Positions 30,356-60,895 of a DNA stretch of 64,000 nucleotides are shown in pieces. The stretch lies in assembly GCA_963665845.2 (NCBI GenBank), contig OY762492.1, forward strand, positions 1,376,001 to 1,440,000, given 5' to 3'. This DNA is from Candidatus Poribacteria bacterium (lineage in GTDB: Bacteria; Poribacteria; WGA-4E; GCA-2687025). A program made the translations under genes and the position numbers. Numbering within the stretch: position 1 is the first letter of the stretch; the number at the start of each line of letters is the position of its first letter. A model generated the notes under the pieces. That model was not told the DNA's origin. It saw only the letters and a list, made by a program, of their open reading frames with translations, and did not search any database.

Positions 30356-30946
30356 CTAAACGGATGACGCCATTTTACGATAAACGCTGATCTCAATGGC
30401 GTCCCGCTTCACCCATGGCAGGTTCAGTTCAAACCAGACCGTTTCCGACTCATACGCGCCGCGGACATGCTCTAAGTAATCGCGCATGCCGTTGGCGCCG
30501 ATGCCGGCGTTGTCCGCCGCGACGATAGCGCCGTCCGCCAAACGCGGCTCGATCGCCTCAAAGCAGGGCGCGTAATTGCCGTAATCGTTGTCTAAATGTA
30601 AAAAAGCGACCTCGCCCTGGATCGCTTTCAGCAGCTCGCGCGCGTCGCCAAGCCGCGGCTCAACAATCTCCGCAAGCCCCGCCGATTCGATGTTGGCGCG
30701 GGCGCGCGCATGGCGGGACGGGTTGATCTCTAGGGTGATGAGCCGCCCGCCCGTCTTCAACAGCTCGCGCCCAAGCCAGAGCGCCGAATAACCCACCGCC
30801 GTCCCGCACTCCACCGCCATCGGCGGGGACGCCTCGGCGATCCGATCCGCCAGATGCCGCGCCTTCTCCGGACCCAGCATTGGGATGCGTTCCTCGCGGC
30901 ATTCGCGCTCCACGCGCTGAATGACCGCCTCTATTTGCGCTGACAC
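30356..30946 (-). CDS. O-methyltransferase (caffeoyl-CoA OMT/TrmR-like)
   Basis: ECGTAVGYSALW, LITLE, GDA, AADN; GTG start after GGAG. Confidence 0.85.
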   Translation of the reverse strand: MSAQIEAVIQRVERECREERIPMLGPEKARHLADRIAEASPPMAVECGTAVGYSALWLGRELLKTGGRLITLEINPSRHARARANIESAGLAEIVEPRLGDARELLKAIQGEVAFLHLDNDYGNYAPCFEAIEPRLADGAIVAADNAGIGANGMRDYLEHVRGAYESETVWFELNLPWVKRDAIEISVYRKMASSV

Positions 30947-31009
30947 GTCCGCTCCCTTCCGATTATTTCGTCTGCGCAATTGTATCGCATTGGAGGCGTA
31001 CGGCAACCC

Positions 31010-31074
31010 GCGCTTCCTGACCTTGCGTCTAATGACGATTTAATTGGACATCGGCGCAGTCCGTACCGCATGAT
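31010..31074 (+). promoter_or_regulatory. Promoter block 1 for Y-like RNA 1
   Basis: TGGACA (31045)-18-CATGAT (31069); CGTC-N4-GACG inverted repeat upstream; 63/65 identical to 31315-31379. Confidence 0.65.
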
Positions 31075-31078
31075 AAGA

Positions 31079-31181
31079 AACGCCGAGGCGATGGACGATG
31101 GTTACCGCCCATAGACAAGGAAGTTGGTACCCTTGTCCAGGCTTTACGCCTGCTTCCGTCGTCCGCTCCTTTCTCGGCGTT
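31079..31181 (+). ncRNA. Y-RNA-like ncRNA 1 (Ro-binding stem plus two hairpins)
   Basis: AACGCCGAG/CTCGGCGTT terminal helix, GGCGATG motif, GGACGATGG/CCGTCGTCC helix, GGTTAC; upstream of Ro60. Confidence 0.75.
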
Positions 31182-31242
31182 CTTCATGGGTTTGGCGCGC
31201 GTTTCAGCGCGGTACTCCCATGCGCGGTTTTTTCATTTTTTA

Positions 31243-31292
31243 TAAACCCCCCTAGCCCCCCTTTTCAAGGGGGAATCGGACGCGGCGGCGCG
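31243..31292. repeat. CCCCCTAGCCCCCCTTTTCAAGGGGG repeat module between the two RNA units
   Basis: Reverse complement of the module at about 11600-11643. Confidence 0.85.
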
Positions 31293-31314
31293 ACTATCCG
31301 CGTATGACCGTACT

Positions 31315-31379
31315 GCGCTTCCTGACCTTGCGTCTAATGACGATTTAATTGGACATCGGCGCAGTCTGTACTGCATGAT
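31315..31379 (+). promoter_or_regulatory. Promoter block 2 for Y-like RNA 2 and probably the Ro60 gene
   Basis: Duplicate of 31010-31074 with 2 substitutions, both in the spacer. Confidence 0.65.
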
Positions 31380-31384
31380 GTAAC

Positions 31385-31450
31385 GACGCCGAGGCGATGG
31401 GTGATGGTTACCTGTCAAGTAAATCCGTCATTCGCTCCTTTCTCGGCGTT
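31385..31450 (+). ncRNA. Y-RNA-like ncRNA 2 (minimal, about 66 nt)
   Basis: GACGCCGAG/CTCGGCGTT and GGGTGATGG/CCGTCATTC helices, pairing-preserving changes relative to RNA 1. Confidence 0.72.
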
Positions 31451-31478
31451 CAATTAAATGAGCGTAAAGGGGGGATCC

Positions 31479-33074
31479 ATGAAAGAACTGATGAACGCGC
31501 TAGGGCAGGTTCCGCAAAAAGAGCCGATCCCCGGCAGAGAAGCGGACATGGCGCGCAACAACGCGGGCGGCTTCGCCTTTCAAGTCGACAAATGGACGCA
31601 GCTGGACAGGTTTCTCATACTCGGAACCGCCGGCGGAACTTACTATATCGAAGAGCGCGAACTGACCCTGGAAAACGCCGAATGCGTCAAGGAGTGCGCC
31701 GCCGAGGACGGCATGCGCGCCGTTGAGCGCATCGTCCGCATCTCCGACAGCGGACGCGCGCCGAAGAACGATCAAGCGATTTTTGCGCTTGCCATGTGCG
31801 CCTCGTACGGAGACAGCGAAACAAAGAAAGCGGCGCTTGAGGCGCTGTCGAAGGTGTGCCGAATCGGAACGCATCTGCTCATGTTCACCGCGTTTTTGAA
31901 ACAGATGCGCGGCTTCGGGCGAAGCGTCAAGCGCGCCCTCGGAGGCTGGTATACCGGCAAGGAGCCGAACAAGCTGGCGGAGCAGGTCATGAAATACCGC
32001 AACCGCCACGGCTGGACGCACCGCGACATCCTGCGGCTTGCGCATCCGCATGGTCCGTCGATCGGCGACGAGGTGAACGACATTTTCCGCTGGGTCGCGC
32101 ACCCGGGCGAGTATGAAGCGAATGAGAACACGCCGGCGCCGCTGGGCGCGTTTTTGAAGCTGCAGAAGGCGGTCAACTCGAAGCAGGCGGCGCGGTTGAT
32201 TGCCGAGAATCCCGCGCTGTCGCATGAGATGGTTCCGACGCATCTGAAAGACGCGCGCGTCTGGCAGGCGATCCTGGAGCGCGGCCTCGGCATGACGGCG
32301 CTCATCCGCAATCTGCCGACGATGACGCGCGTTGGGCTGTTGAAGCCGATGTCGCGCCACGCGCAGCTGGCGGCGGAACGGCTGAACGACGCGGACGCGC
32401 TCAAACGGCAGCGCGTTCATCCGATCAACCTGCTCATCGCCTACCGAACCTACGCGGCCGGCAAGTCGATTCGCGGGACGGCGGAATGGGAGCCGACGCA
32501 GGAAATTGCGGAGGCGCTGCAGGCGGCGTTTTATGCGGCGTACAACAGCATCGAGACGCTGCCGAAGCGGGTTTATGTCGGCGTCGATGTGAGCGGGTCG
32601 ATGGGGCATGCGCATCTGTGCGGCGTCCCTGGTTTCTCGCCGAGGGTCGCGTCGGCGGCGCTGGCGGTCTGCTATGCGCGGCAGTTTGAGCGCGCGGCGG
32701 TATACGGTTTTTCAGACAAGATGAAAGACCTGCGGATTGGGGCGGGGACGACCATCGAAACGGCGATGGAACGCGCGGACGCGATGGACTTCGGCAGCAC
32801 CGACTGCGCCATGCCGATGCTCCACGCGCTGGAGGCGGGCATTGAAGCGGACGCTTTCGTCATTTTGACCGACAACGAAACCTGGGCGGGCGATATACAC
32901 CCCGCCGAGGCGCTGCGGAATTACCGCAAGCAAACGGGCATTGAGGCGAAGCTGGTCGTGTGCGGAATGGCGTCAACCGGGTTTTCGATTGCGGATCCGA
33001 AGGACGGCGGAATGCTGGATGTGGTCGGCTTCGACACGGCGGTTCCGCGCCTGATGGACGATTTTTTGGAATGA
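31479..33074 (+). CDS. rsr: Ro60/TROVE-domain RNA-binding protein with vWA domain
   Basis: NNAGGFAF, RFLILGT.GGTYY, KYRNRHGWTHRDILRLAHP, ALIRNL, MIDAS DVSGS...TDCA...LTDNE; SD AAAGGGGGGA before ATG 31479. Confidence 0.96.
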   Translation: MKELMNALGQVPQKEPIPGREADMARNNAGGFAFQVDKWTQLDRFLILGTAGGTYYIEERELTLENAECVKECAAEDGMRAVERIVRISDSGRAPKNDQAIFALAMCASYGDSETKKAALEALSKVCRIGTHLLMFTAFLKQMRGFGRSVKRALGGWYTGKEPNKLAEQVMKYRNRHGWTHRDILRLAHPHGPSIGDEVNDIFRWVAHPGEYEANENTPAPLGAFLKLQKAVNSKQAARLIAENPALSHEMVPTHLKDARVWQAILERGLGMTALIRNLPTMTRVGLLKPMSRHAQLAAERLNDADALKRQRVHPINLLIAYRTYAAGKSIRGTAEWEPTQEIAEALQAAFYAAYNSIETLPKRVYVGVDVSGSMGHAHLCGVPGFSPRVASAALAVCYARQFERAAVYGFSDKMKDLRIGAGTTIETAMERADAMDFGSTDCAMPMLHALEAGIEADAFVILTDNETWAGDIHPAEALRNYRKQTGIEAKLVVCGMASTGFSIADPKDGGMLDVVGFDTAVPRLMDDFLE

Positions 33075-33079
33075 TGAGC

Positions 33080-33207
33080 AGGGCGGGGCGAATGCAATTG
33101 GTTACCATAACCAACAGGTCGCAGGTTCGAATCCTGCCGTTCGCGCCAGCGGGCGTAGCTTAGGGGTAGAGCAGTTGGCCGCCGACTGCAAGCAACTTCC
33201 CCGCCTT
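33080..33207 (+). ncRNA. yrlA: YrlA-type Y RNA (circularly permuted tRNA mimic)
   Basis: GGCGAATG Ro motif; T arm GCAGG-TTCGAAT-CCTGC, then acceptor stem closed by GCCA, then D arm GCTT-AGGGGTA-GAGC; terminal helix 33080-88/33199-207. Confidence 0.9.
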
Positions 33208-33223
33208 CTTGTCATACGCTTCT

Positions 33224-34624
33224 CTAGGCGTTTTCTTTTGGTTGAGGGCGCGGCGGCGATCCCTTAGCGGCCATTTCCGCAATCAATGTCCAGATCAGCG
33301 ACAGCGCCAGGGCGGCTAAAAACGCCGCCAGCAGATTCACCGACAGGCGGGGGCGCGCCGGGCGCGTGTCCGGCTCCGCCCTGTCCAGCGCCTGAAAGAC
33401 AGCCTGCTCGCGTATTTCGTCCGCTTTTGCGATCTCATACTGCTGCTCCAAAAGCAGATACAGCGTCTCCTGAAGTTTCTTCTCGCGCGACAAACGCGCA
33501 TACTCCCGCTCCACATCCGGCAGCCGCTCCAGCGGCCCGACGCTCAAAAAATTGTCGCCGCTCTCGATCTGCGACAGCGACCTGTTCAGCTCCTCAATCT
33601 GCCGCTCCACCGCGCTCAGCAGCGGATTGCCGACGGCAGCCTTTGCGGCGGTCAAACGCTCCCGCTCAATTTTCACGCTCTCCAGCAGCGCTTGTATCTC
33701 GCCGGCGCGCAGCGCGATGGAGGCAACCTGGTCAGGCAGCGAGACGATGCCGCGCTCCCGCTTGAACTCCGCCAGCGCGTCTTCCGCCTCGCGCAGCTCC
33801 CGCTTCACCGCGTCGCGCCGCGCCTCGATGAACCGGCGGTGGCGCGACGATTCGGTCAACGCGGTCTCCTGAAAATACTTGTCCAGCTCGTCCGCAAAGG
33901 CGTTCGCCGCGTCCGCCGCCAGCTCGGCGCTGTCAGGAGCCTCAAAACGGATCGTCAACGCTAGGTTCTTGTCGGTCTGAACGACCAGCCCCTCCCGTAT
34001 TTTCGACACCGCTTCCCGCGCTTTTCGGTACCATGCCCACCGTATCTCCTCCAACGGATACGGCGCTTCCGGCAGGCTTTCAACGCCGACCGACTGCGCC
34101 ATGCGCCGCCGCAGCGCCTCCTCCGACATCGTCAAGATTCCCTCGTCAGGGCTTTCTTGCAGTCGCCCGTCCAAAACATCGGGATGCGCATACGCCAGCG
34201 CCAGCCCCGCTTTCTCTGGATCCAACAGCTGCTTAGCCGTCGCCGCGCCATGCCGCCGCTTCTCCGCCTCTAGATACCGCGCTGTCAAATCCAAGCGGCG
34301 CGCCACCGCATGCGCCATCCGGCGCGTCGTCAAGACCGCTGTCAGTTTCTTGTTTTCGGACGCGCCGATCCCTGGGACAAGCCCGCCCACGGGCGCCGTC
34401 TGTAAAAAGGGACTCAGCGCGTCCAGCGACGGACCCGACGAATCGACCGTCCGTATCGAAACAGAGGAGCGGTAGGTTTTAACCGCAAAAAAGAAGGTGT
34501 AGACGCAGGACGCGCCGACGCATACCGCAAAGATGAGCGCGATGGCAAGCCGCCGACGCCAGACGCTTTGGAGCAGCGCGGCTAAGGAGGGGTTGTTTCG
34601 GTCGGCGCCGTTCATCGTTTTCAA
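33224..34624 (-). CDS. Polysaccharide chain-length determinant (Wzz/Wzc N-terminal, GNVR-like)
   Basis: Two terminal TM helices, coiled coil, LDRAEP..PARP. Confidence 0.85.
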   Translation of the reverse strand: MKTMNGADRNNPSLAALLQSVWRRRLAIALIFAVCVGASCVYTFFFAVKTYRSSVSIRTVDSSGPSLDALSPFLQTAPVGGLVPGIGASENKKLTAVLTTRRMAHAVARRLDLTARYLEAEKRRHGAATAKQLLDPEKAGLALAYAHPDVLDGRLQESPDEGILTMSEEALRRRMAQSVGVESLPEAPYPLEEIRWAWYRKAREAVSKIREGLVVQTDKNLALTIRFEAPDSAELAADAANAFADELDKYFQETALTESSRHRRFIEARRDAVKRELREAEDALAEFKRERGIVSLPDQVASIALRAGEIQALLESVKIERERLTAAKAAVGNPLLSAVERQIEELNRSLSQIESGDNFLSVGPLERLPDVEREYARLSREKKLQETLYLLLEQQYEIAKADEIREQAVFQALDRAEPDTRPARPRLSVNLLAAFLAALALSLIWTLIAEMAAKGSPPRPQPKENA

Positions 34625-55891: not shown

Positions 55892-56008
55892 CCTCGGCGA
55901 TACCTACTTTCCCACCGGGTCTCCCCTGCAGTATCATCGGCGTCGTAGGTCTTAACGGCCGTGTTCGGAATGGGAACGGGTGTTTCCCCTACGCTATCCT
56001 CACCGAAG
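55892..56008 (-). rRNA. rrf: 5S rRNA
   Basis: CCCGTTCCCATTCCGAACACGG..GTTAAG...GATGATACTGC...GAAAGTAGGT on the minus strand. Confidence 0.96.
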
Positions 56009-56089
56009 CGCCATCCTCAAAATTATTTGACGATCGAATTGCGGCCCGCGCATGAGCAGTGTCGCGCTGGACATTGTAAGAAAGAAGAA

Positions 56090-58968
<2,879 letters not shown>

Positions 58969-59076
58969 TCTCGCCTTTCCTACGTTGAGTCCCAATTTTG
59001 CGCTCTACTGCAAAATTGCGTTCCACAATTCGATTGTCAAAGATCATACCCCGCTGTCCGCGGGGAAACTCGTCAT

Positions 59077-59152
59077 TGGTGGAGATGAGCGGGCTTGAAC
59101 CGCTGACTTCCTGCTTGCAAAGCAGACGCTCTCCCAACTGAGCTACATCCCC
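59077..59152 (-). tRNA. tRNA-Ala(UGC)
   Basis: GGGGATGTAGCTCAGTTGGGAGAGC...TTGCAA...CTCCACCA, 76 nt. Confidence 0.97.
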
Positions 59153-59199
59153 TCCGACACATGCCGCGCGTCCGGCGCAAGCGGCGAACGCCGCGCCGA

Positions 59200-59276
59200 T
59201 GGTGGGCCCGGGTGGAGTCGAACCACCGACCTCACGCTTATCAGGCGTACGCTCTAACCGACTGAGCTACGGACCC
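59200..59276 (-). tRNA. tRNA-Ile(GAU)
   Basis: GGGTCCGTAGCTCAGTCGGTTAGAGC...CTGATAA...CCCACCA, 77 nt. Confidence 0.97.
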
Positions 59277-59352
59277 TGCCGACATGCGAGGCGATCTGAA
59301 CCTGAGACGAAGAGCAGACATTCTGGGTCTGAAACGGACGCCGATGCTCCCT

Positions 59353-60895
<1,543 letters not shown>

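Follow-up and report, generated by a model that had tools for sequence, protein, structure and literature searches.

A Ro60 locus of Poribacteria with three Y-like RNAs that probably share one Rsr-binding handle

Introduction

YrlA-type Y RNAs have been reported less than 4 kb from rsr, the gene encoding the bacterial Ro60 orthologue, in 254 bacterial species, each species having two or more Y RNAs, of which one resembles a tRNA and another is a hairpin (Chen et al. 2014, PMC4201824). According to the main text of that survey, YrlA RNAs are defined by the motif GNCGAAN0-1G near the 5' end and by YUAY at the start of the V region, and their tRNA-like part runs in the order T arm, closed acceptor-like stem and D arm. 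Only the 5' strand of the handle is described there as recognisable in the Y RNAs of Salmonella and Mycobacterium smegmatis, and further variant Y RNAs are expected (PMC4201824, main text). In this study, we analysed a stretch of 64,000 nucleotides from a Candidatus Poribacteria bacterium (hereafter the window), in which an rsr gene is flanked by three Y-like RNAs named RNA1, RNA2 and RNA3. We propose that this locus is probably a self-contained Rsr module, in which the three flanking RNAs are Y RNAs that bind the Rsr ring via a shared bulged-stem handle.

A full-text search found no paper linking Poribacteria with Ro60, and the phylum is not mentioned in the main text of PMC4201824, its supplementary species tables aside. 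The locus extends the Ro60/Y RNA particle to this uncultivated, sponge-associated phylum and leaves the accepted model unchanged.

Results

An intact rsr gene lies between three Y-like RNAs

The window corresponds to C1:1376001-1440000 of a 3.98-Mb genome that is 89.96% complete. The rsr gene, two short RNA cassettes 5' of it and RNA3 3' of it form one locus, all on the + strand (Table 1). A preliminary description of this DNA had placed an intact TROVE-vWA gene between three RNAs, and our analysis recovered all of these features at the same coordinates.

The open reading frame (ORF) 31458-33074 was compared with Pfam and with solved structures. It matched TROVE (PF05731, E 2.1e-42) and then the Ro60-type vWA domain (vWA_Ro60, PF25045, E 4.9e-58) in one protein of ~530 aa. 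It also matched solved chains end to end, namely 2NVO, the Rsr of Deinococcus radiodurans (E 2.8e-108, full-length alignment, residues 5-536), and 1YVP (E 1e-104). The rsr gene is an intact Ro60 orthologue. Its start is likely the ATG at 31479, preceded by a putative ribosome-binding site AAAGGGGGG. We preferred this codon to the one at 31458 because the sister species, whose Rsr is 90% identical to that of the window and whose frame opens with MKELRNALG, has no upstream in-frame ATG.

RNA3 has the layout of a YrlA-type Y RNA

RNA3 begins 6 nt past the rsr stop codon on the rsr strand, well within the 4-kb distance of the published survey. The Rfam YrlA model (RF02553) matched 33085-33206 with 34.6 bits (E 3.4e-5), and RNA3 was the top YrlA match genome-wide (E 1.3e-5; next match, E 0.043). 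Both sequence motifs of YrlA RNAs were present: GGCGAAUG at 33087-33094 fits GNCGAAN0-1G, and UUAC at 33102-33105 fits YUAY. Downstream of them we found, in the YrlA order, a T arm at ~33120-33138 with GGUUCGAAUCC, a 7-bp acceptor-like stem (33138-33144 with 33149-33155) closed by a GCCA loop, which is GUCA in the sister species, and a D arm at 33158-33172. The predicted fold has an energy of -55.9 kcal/mol (z -2.61), and 4 of 200 shuffled sequences folded as well.

Related RNAs were found in other Poribacteria. YrlA-like matches adjoin rsr not only in the sister species: 15 of the 21 rsr loci of another Poribacteria genus (hereafter g12), whose Rsr is ~45% identical to that of the window, have them too. 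They are always on the rsr strand, and g12 loci often carry two copies. One further YrlA-like match adjoins a weak TROVE-like match (L032). All 25 Poribacteria YrlA matches score between 30.7 and 41.5 bits, those beside rsr included. A 21-sequence alignment of the Poribacteria YrlA-like RNAs showed that the T, D and acceptor-like stems are kept, with two-sided compensatory changes in 4 of 17 predicted T and acceptor-like pairs and in a fifth pair elsewhere. By homology, RNA3 is a YrlA-type Y RNA, divergent from the Rfam seed.

RNA1 and RNA2 share a bulged-stem handle and differ in their heads

RNA1 and RNA2 were predicted to fold into stable structures (-47.7 kcal/mol, z -5.07, and -29.0 kcal/mol, z -3.75, respectively), and none of 200 shuffled sequences folded as well in either case. 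Read from the 5' side, their common handle consists of a 10-bp outer stem, a bulged C within GGCGAU (31089 in RNA1), a 2-bp GA/UC step and a 10-bp upper stem, after which the head opens with UUACC (31102-31106 in RNA1). The 3' strand carries a 1-nt bulge and a 3-nt bulge within GCUCCUUU, and UCCUU marks its bulge region. The preliminary description had proposed a scaffold common to all three RNAs, made of a GGCGA(U/A) motif, a 9-nt upper helix and GGUUACC. The motif and GGUUACC stood, the latter encoded by GGTTACC at 31100-31106 (RNA1), 31406-31412 (RNA2) and 33100-33106 (RNA3), but the upper helix is 10 bp long in RNA1 and RNA2. Nor is GGUUACC a new signature: it is the local form of the handle, and YUAY, which is already published for YrlA RNAs, lies within it. 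The three pairing-preserving differences between RNA1 and RNA2 that had been read in the upper helix (G-C to G-U, A-U to G-U and C-G to U-A) were found again at pairs 17-87, 18-86 and 19-85.

The arms of the two RNAs are nearly identical, with 93% identity both in the 27-nt 5' arm (31080-31106 and 31386-31412) and in the 28-nt 3' arm (31155-31182 and 31424-31451). The 5' arm of RNA1 is 67% identical to the corresponding part of RNA3 (33080-33106). The sequences between the arms are unrelated, in agreement with what had been noted about the apical parts. The head of RNA2 is a loop of ~19 nt, 11 of them pyrimidines, on a single long hairpin. The head of RNA1 is branched into two hairpins, unlike the single-hairpin short Y RNA type (YrlB/Yrn2). 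A blastn-short search, which compares sequence only, of the RNA1 head against the whole genome including the rRNA operon returned chance matches of at most 14 nt.

No Rfam family matched RNA1 or RNA2 at E<=10 in a search of 30900-33400, and ARAGORN found no tRNA or tmRNA in 30500-33800. This is the outcome that the preliminary description had anticipated, with a YrlA match for RNA3 and none for the other two. It had added that RNA1 and RNA2 may be undescribed Y RNA classes. For short hairpin Y RNAs of the YrlB/Yrn2 type, to which RNA2 is similar, no Rfam model was found. Both lie beside rsr on the same strand, as short hairpin Y RNAs do; a second copy of RNA1, described below, does not. In our reading, the two short RNAs probably belong with the YrlB/Yrn2 type of Y RNA, which has no tRNA-like part, and their handle is a variant one.

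The short RNAs are encoded by duplicated cassettes with promoter-like blocks

Repeat finding revealed a duplicated 65-nt block upstream of the two short RNAs (31010-31074 and 31315-31379, 97% identical); cassettes 1 and 2, arms included, are duplicates of each other. Each block ends in a promoter-like site (Table 1), and the base of the stem begins 5-6 nt downstream of the -10 hexamer in each cassette. A pattern scan counted 3 sigma-70-like sites, against 0.5 expected. The -35 and -10 hexamers are kept in all 6 cassettes of the two sister species, with a variable spacer. A sigma-54 promoter was considered by eye for the TTGGAC block and rejected, the GG/GC spacing being unfit and RtcR not having been found. 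Downstream of RNA1, a hairpin followed by T runs was read from the sequence and is likely an intrinsic terminator, as judged from its predicted fold; it is absent from the pattern-scan list.

An orphan copy of RNA1 is located at C1:2575531-2575675 (-), between cysS and hemB and 1.17 Mb from rsr. It is 99% identical to RNA1 over 103 nt and has its own promoter-like block and cassette tail. RNA1 is not found beyond these two copies: a BLAST search over 176 genomes of the phylum gave elsewhere only two chance-level matches of 20-22 nt. The RNA1 head is, judging from these searches and its predicted fold, stable, duplicated and lineage-specific.

Table 1. Features of the rsr locus (coordinates refer to the window)
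Feature	Position	Strand	Description or basis
Promoter-like site, cassette 1	31045-31074	+	TGGACA, 18-nt spacer, CATGAT; within duplicated block
RNA1, short Y-like RNA with two-hairpin head	31079-31181	+	Fold; handle model R1, 83.2 bits
RNA1 terminator candidate	31185-31240	+	Hairpin 31185-31222 and T runs; fold -22.4 kcal/mol, z -3.68
Dispersed repeat copy, ~73 nt, between cassettes	31243-31316		437 blastn-short hits genome-wide
Promoter-like site, cassette 2 and rsr	31350-31379	+	TGGACA, 18-nt spacer, CATGAT; pattern scan, repeat
RNA2, short hairpin Y-like RNA in rsr leader	31385-31450	+	Fold; handle model R1, 83.4 bits
rsr, Ro60 orthologue with TROVE and vWA_Ro60	31479-33074	+	531 aa; open frame from 31458
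RNA3, YrlA-type Y RNA, tRNA-like	33080-33207	+	Rfam RF02553, folds, relatives' alignment
Weak terminator-like hairpin and T run after RNA3	33216-33241	+	Pattern match; fold non-significant, z -0.47

The handle is conserved beside rsr in Poribacteria and beyond

Loci of relatives were recovered with an alignment query; a query of genome contigs with the single Rsr protein gave none. Rsr is patchily distributed, with 25 of 61 genomes in the phylum sample and 1 of 7 other genomes of this family carrying it. The sister species has three tandem cassettes 5' of rsr, compared with two here, and a YrlA-type RNA 3' of it. Its cassettes share the -35 and -10 hexamers and the handle with those here, and each has a head of its own; one of these cassettes, unit C, is the orthologue of RNA2. 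Across six cassettes, the 22 handle pairs are 97.7% paired, compared with 31-64% when one strand is slid along the other. Six pairs vary on one side, always in a wobble-compatible way, and two change on both sides.

In g12, a hairpin was found 25-40 nt before the rsr ATG in 20 of 21 loci, 19 of them by pattern and one more by model; none was found in the remaining locus (L019). It has the form UGUGCGGGCCGAAGUAUUGCGUUAYC, a variable loop, then CGCAAUACAC(U/A)CCUUGCCCGC. It carries GCCGAAG, which fits GNCGAAN0-1G, followed by GUUAYC and CCUUG. A second copy of the hairpin lies further 5' in five loci by pattern and also in L011 by model, and these second copies are sometimes interleaved with YrlA-type RNAs. 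One g12 locus (L010, 3136-3575, - strand) has an alternating array of YrlA-type, hairpin-type, YrlA-type and hairpin-type RNAs ahead of rsr, which suggests tandem duplication of a two-RNA unit. Among 23 g12 hairpins, 16 pairs are 94.3% paired and three show two-sided changes, in 8 cells; none of 500 shuffles reached either the observed covariation score or the paired fraction. The survival of the stems in relatives, on which the preliminary description had staked its structures, is borne out by the pairing-preserving changes in the sister species and by the analogous hairpin across g12. The core common to both genera is N-C-GA-(A/U)-G on the 5' side, UUAYC past the upper stem and UC-CUU on the 3' side, and N changes together with the base that it pairs with (G-U here, C-G in g12).

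In a search of 151 genomes of the class, a model of the handle of this genus (R1) matched only this genome and the sister species. A second model (R2), built on the g12 hairpin, gave 49 matches in 85 sources; 47 of them share the strand of rsr, and the remaining two mirror strong hits. Arrays of 2-4 handle-bearing RNAs of 61-139 nt lie beside rsr in Fimbriimonadaceae, in Abditibacteriaceae and in loci from Verrucomicrobia metagenome-assembled genomes. A search of metagenomes with the 5'-arm pattern gave 5 loci, none convincing, the best being a partial R1 match of 19.2 bits. Judged by its sequence and predicted pairing, the handle is a widespread signature linked to rsr.

In three loci from other phyla, Chondromyces apiculatus (L074), L048 and L050, rsr is embedded in dense arrays of tRNA genes, with up to 25 tRNA matches within 6.6 kb on the rsr strand in C. 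apiculatus.

RNA-library contigs span parts of the rsr locus

We compared the locus with contigs from three metatranscriptome runs of one study, which derive from a relative (~93-95% identical). A contig covering 31357-31708 joins RNA2 to rsr, and another covering 32449-33219 runs from the 3' part of rsr through RNA3 and ends at the terminator-like site. These contigs give a hint that RNA2, rsr and RNA3 are co-transcribed.

The contig running from RNA2 into rsr also bears on a different role for RNA2. This RNA and its Poribacteria counterparts could be mainly a cis-acting leader element, through which Rsr would autoregulate its translation or mRNA stability, and processing into a Y RNA would be compatible with this. 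The 3' end of RNA2 is indeed 28 nt from the rsr start codon and 16 nt from AAAGGGGGG, the pattern scan found no terminator in this gap, and the position just 5' of the ATG is kept in 20 of the 21 g12 loci. Against it, the same handle is found on RNA1 and on the orphan copy, which are leaders of no gene, and we consider a mainly cis-acting role unlikely.

Extra copies, relics and repeats

The handle model recovered only three copies in the whole 3.98-Mb genome, each with a promoter-like block. A decayed rsr relic was also found at ~761.9-762.4 kb, downstream of a prs gene. Of a cassette, it retains the tail, a promoter-like block and the initial ~16 nt of the handle; these are followed by an uncharacterised ORF of 99 aa and then by a piece of rsr that corresponds to aa 36-67 (78% identical). 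Over 31344-33241, this genome and the sister species are 88% identical. The flanks are non-syntenic, those of the sister mapping to 2.65 Mb and 0.07 Mb of this genome. The locus therefore behaves as a self-contained module that has moved as a unit.

Such turnover raises the question of whether RNA1 and its orphan twin are recent duplicates of the leader hairpin with a loop insertion, functionless and decaying. The relic at ~762 kb and the different cassette numbers in the two sister species (two and three) fit this scenario, as do the 99% identity of the two copies, pointing to recent duplication, the confinement of the RNA1 head to this genome and the lack of an RNA-library contig for RNA1. 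In both copies, however, the promoter-like block is intact, the handle is perfect and the two-hairpin head is stable; a good terminator, made of a hairpin and a T run, follows RNA1; and the handles of the extra cassettes in the sister species are intact as well. Decay of functionless copies is therefore quite improbable in our view.

The ~73-nt sequence between the two cassettes is a true dispersed repeat and contains the hairpin CCCCCUUUUCAAGGGGG. It is outside the Y RNA system, and the high metatranscriptome depth at this place is explained by its many genomic copies. With such a repeat nearby, and given their long inverted-repeat arms, their duplication and the one dispersed copy, the cassettes themselves might be taken for palindromic repeats, similar to repetitive extragenic palindromes or miniature inverted-repeat transposable elements (REP/MITE-like), that lie near rsr by chance and are not RNA genes. 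The counts speak otherwise, with three handle copies, all behind a promoter-like block, against 437 hits of the real repeat. The handle also bears Ro60-type motifs, and related hairpins go with rsr in several phyla, 47 of 49 matches being on its strand. We give the palindromic-repeat explanation almost no weight.

Genomic context

As had been reported, rtcB, rtcA and rtcR are missing from the 64-kb window. A genome search found a sole RtcB match (C1:859584-860690), alone and 547 kb from rsr, with a TonB-receptor-like gene and an unknown gene as neighbours; RtcA and RtcR were not found in the 89.96%-complete genome. An rsr-rtcBA operon with a divergent rtcR is consequently not present here. The preliminary description had regarded this lack of linkage as notable, but the part of PMC7790460 that deals with the operon places rsr in it only "in some bacteria". 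The neighbours within ~9 kb of rsr are polysaccharide and haem biosynthesis genes, and no Ubl or E1 genes were found among the 16 ORFs scanned ~9 kb either side of rsr. PNPase is encoded in the genome.

The window also contains a complete rRNA operon at 55892-60895 (- strand), comprising 16S, tRNA-Ile and tRNA-Ala-like genes, 23S and 5S. The 5' end of its 16S gene departs from the Rfam bacterial consensus at several usual universal-primer positions.

Discussion

The YrlA layout of RNA3, the duplicated cassettes with their own promoter-like blocks and the retention of the handle while the heads differ all support the interpretation of this locus as an Rsr module with three Y RNAs. In this model, Rsr would bind RNA1, RNA2 and RNA3 through the handle, as we infer from the motifs and structure that they share.

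Several observations weigh against this interpretation. The 34.6 bits of RNA3 are below the Rfam gathering score of 69, and we base its homology to YrlA, despite the sub-threshold score, on the E-values and the linkage to rsr. RNA1 and RNA2 carry GGCGAUGG, with U for the second A, and in this they depart from the published GNCGAAN0-1G motif. The covariation among the six cassettes comes from few close relatives, and 47 of 500 shuffles reached the two-sided count; two cells of the upper helix do not pair (unit A has U-U, unit C has A-A), and unit C has a third such cell at the base of its outer stem. Covariation of the handle within the genus may be called supportive but weak. In the sister species and at the orphan copy, the tails of the cassettes fold no better than shuffled sequences and give no convincing terminator, which bears on how 3' ends would form. 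The RNA1 head exists in two copies, in this genome only. Contig depth was 0 over the RNA1 region (31029-31186), although these contigs are those of a relative and are uninformative either way. Finally, the RNA-library contigs show neither ends nor strand, and DNA carry-over is possible.

We propose the following steps for the module. The promoter-like site of cassette 2 would drive a joint transcript of RNA2 and rsr; RNA2 would then be cut from its leader, as reported for M. smegmatis, and RNA3 from its 3' end. RNA1 and the orphan copy would each have a promoter of their own. As the analogy with Deinococcus and Salmonella suggests, RNA3 may tether Rsr to PNPase or to tRNA-binding factors; its tRNA-like module is conserved, and its head would by homology have a distinct partner. 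For the short RNAs, tethering of specific conserved partners seems less probable than a minimal role as gates or stabilisers. Between related species, the heads of the hairpin type differ in both sequence and length and the handle hardly varies; closely related species have heads in common. Because the heads of the short RNAs are weakly constrained, we favour for the hairpin type a putative gate or stabiliser function, which may or may not be combined with a cis-acting one in the rsr leader.

A more far-reaching possibility is that the short cassettes form an evolvable set of adapters, encoded as mini-genes with a fixed handle (bulged GNCGA(A/U), GGUUAYC and 3' UCCUU) and swapped heads. Heads would be gained and lost between sister species, cassettes could sit far from rsr, and the RNA1 head would be a new effector-binding module. 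The cross-phylum handle would then mark a large class of tRNA-less Y RNAs missed by the Rfam YrlA model and by surveys. We regard this idea as a speculation and as rather unlikely.

Compared with what is published, the new elements here are the phylum, the promoter-like block of each cassette, the cassette number that differs in the sister species, the orphan RNA1 and the conserved motif of the 3' strand. The text of PMC4201824, as far as its main part goes, does not describe retention of YUAY and 3' UCCUU in tRNA-less Y RNAs, individually promoted cassettes of variable number or a distant orphan Y-like gene. Since YUAY and 3' UCCUU are kept in Y RNAs that have no tRNA-like part, these motifs are likely to belong to a Ro60-proximal handle and not to a tRNA mimic. 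The handle model can be used to find hairpin-type Y RNAs beside rsr in several phyla. Moreover, Y RNA genes may be independently promoted, may vary in number between sister species and may sit 1 Mb from rsr, beyond the 4-kb window of the published survey.

The preliminary description had seen in this locus a modular ribonucleoprotein in which one Ro60 is served by interchangeable RNAs. A Ro60 locus with three Y-like RNAs is what we find; the modular principle itself is not new, being the established Ro60/Y RNA model (Chen et al. 2014), and the locus can be set beside the systems from which that model comes. The rsr-yrlBA-rtcBA operon of Salmonella Typhimurium is similar in having one Ro60 orthologue, a tRNA-like YrlA-type RNA and a shorter Y RNA on the same strand within less than 2 kb, a GNCGAA-type 5' handle motif and YUAY after the handle stem. 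It differs in its linkage to rtcB, rtcA and rtcR and its sigma-54/RtcR control, neither of which is found here, whereas the short RNAs of the present locus lie 5' of rsr, have their own sigma-70-like blocks and carry GGCGAU in place of GNCGAA. The YrlA of M. smegmatis shares the 7-bp acceptor-like stem, closed by GCCA in RNA3 (PMC4201824, main text, for the former); in contrast to M. smegmatis, the tRNA-like RNA is here 3' of rsr and only hairpin types are 5' of it. D. radiodurans has Rsr, Yrn1 and Yrn2 and, with PNPase, the RYPER complex; its handle can be recognised on both strands, as it can here, and PNPase is also encoded in this genome. The tRNA-like part of Yrn1 is, however, arranged otherwise and evolved separately (PMC4201824, main text). 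Vertebrate Y RNAs likewise combine one conserved bulged stem with variable distal loops, the equivalent here being one C that bulges from the 5' strand and faces a bulge of 3 nt in the 3' strand; their sequence is not homologous, they are made by other transcription machinery, and the animal RNAs have no tRNA-like module.

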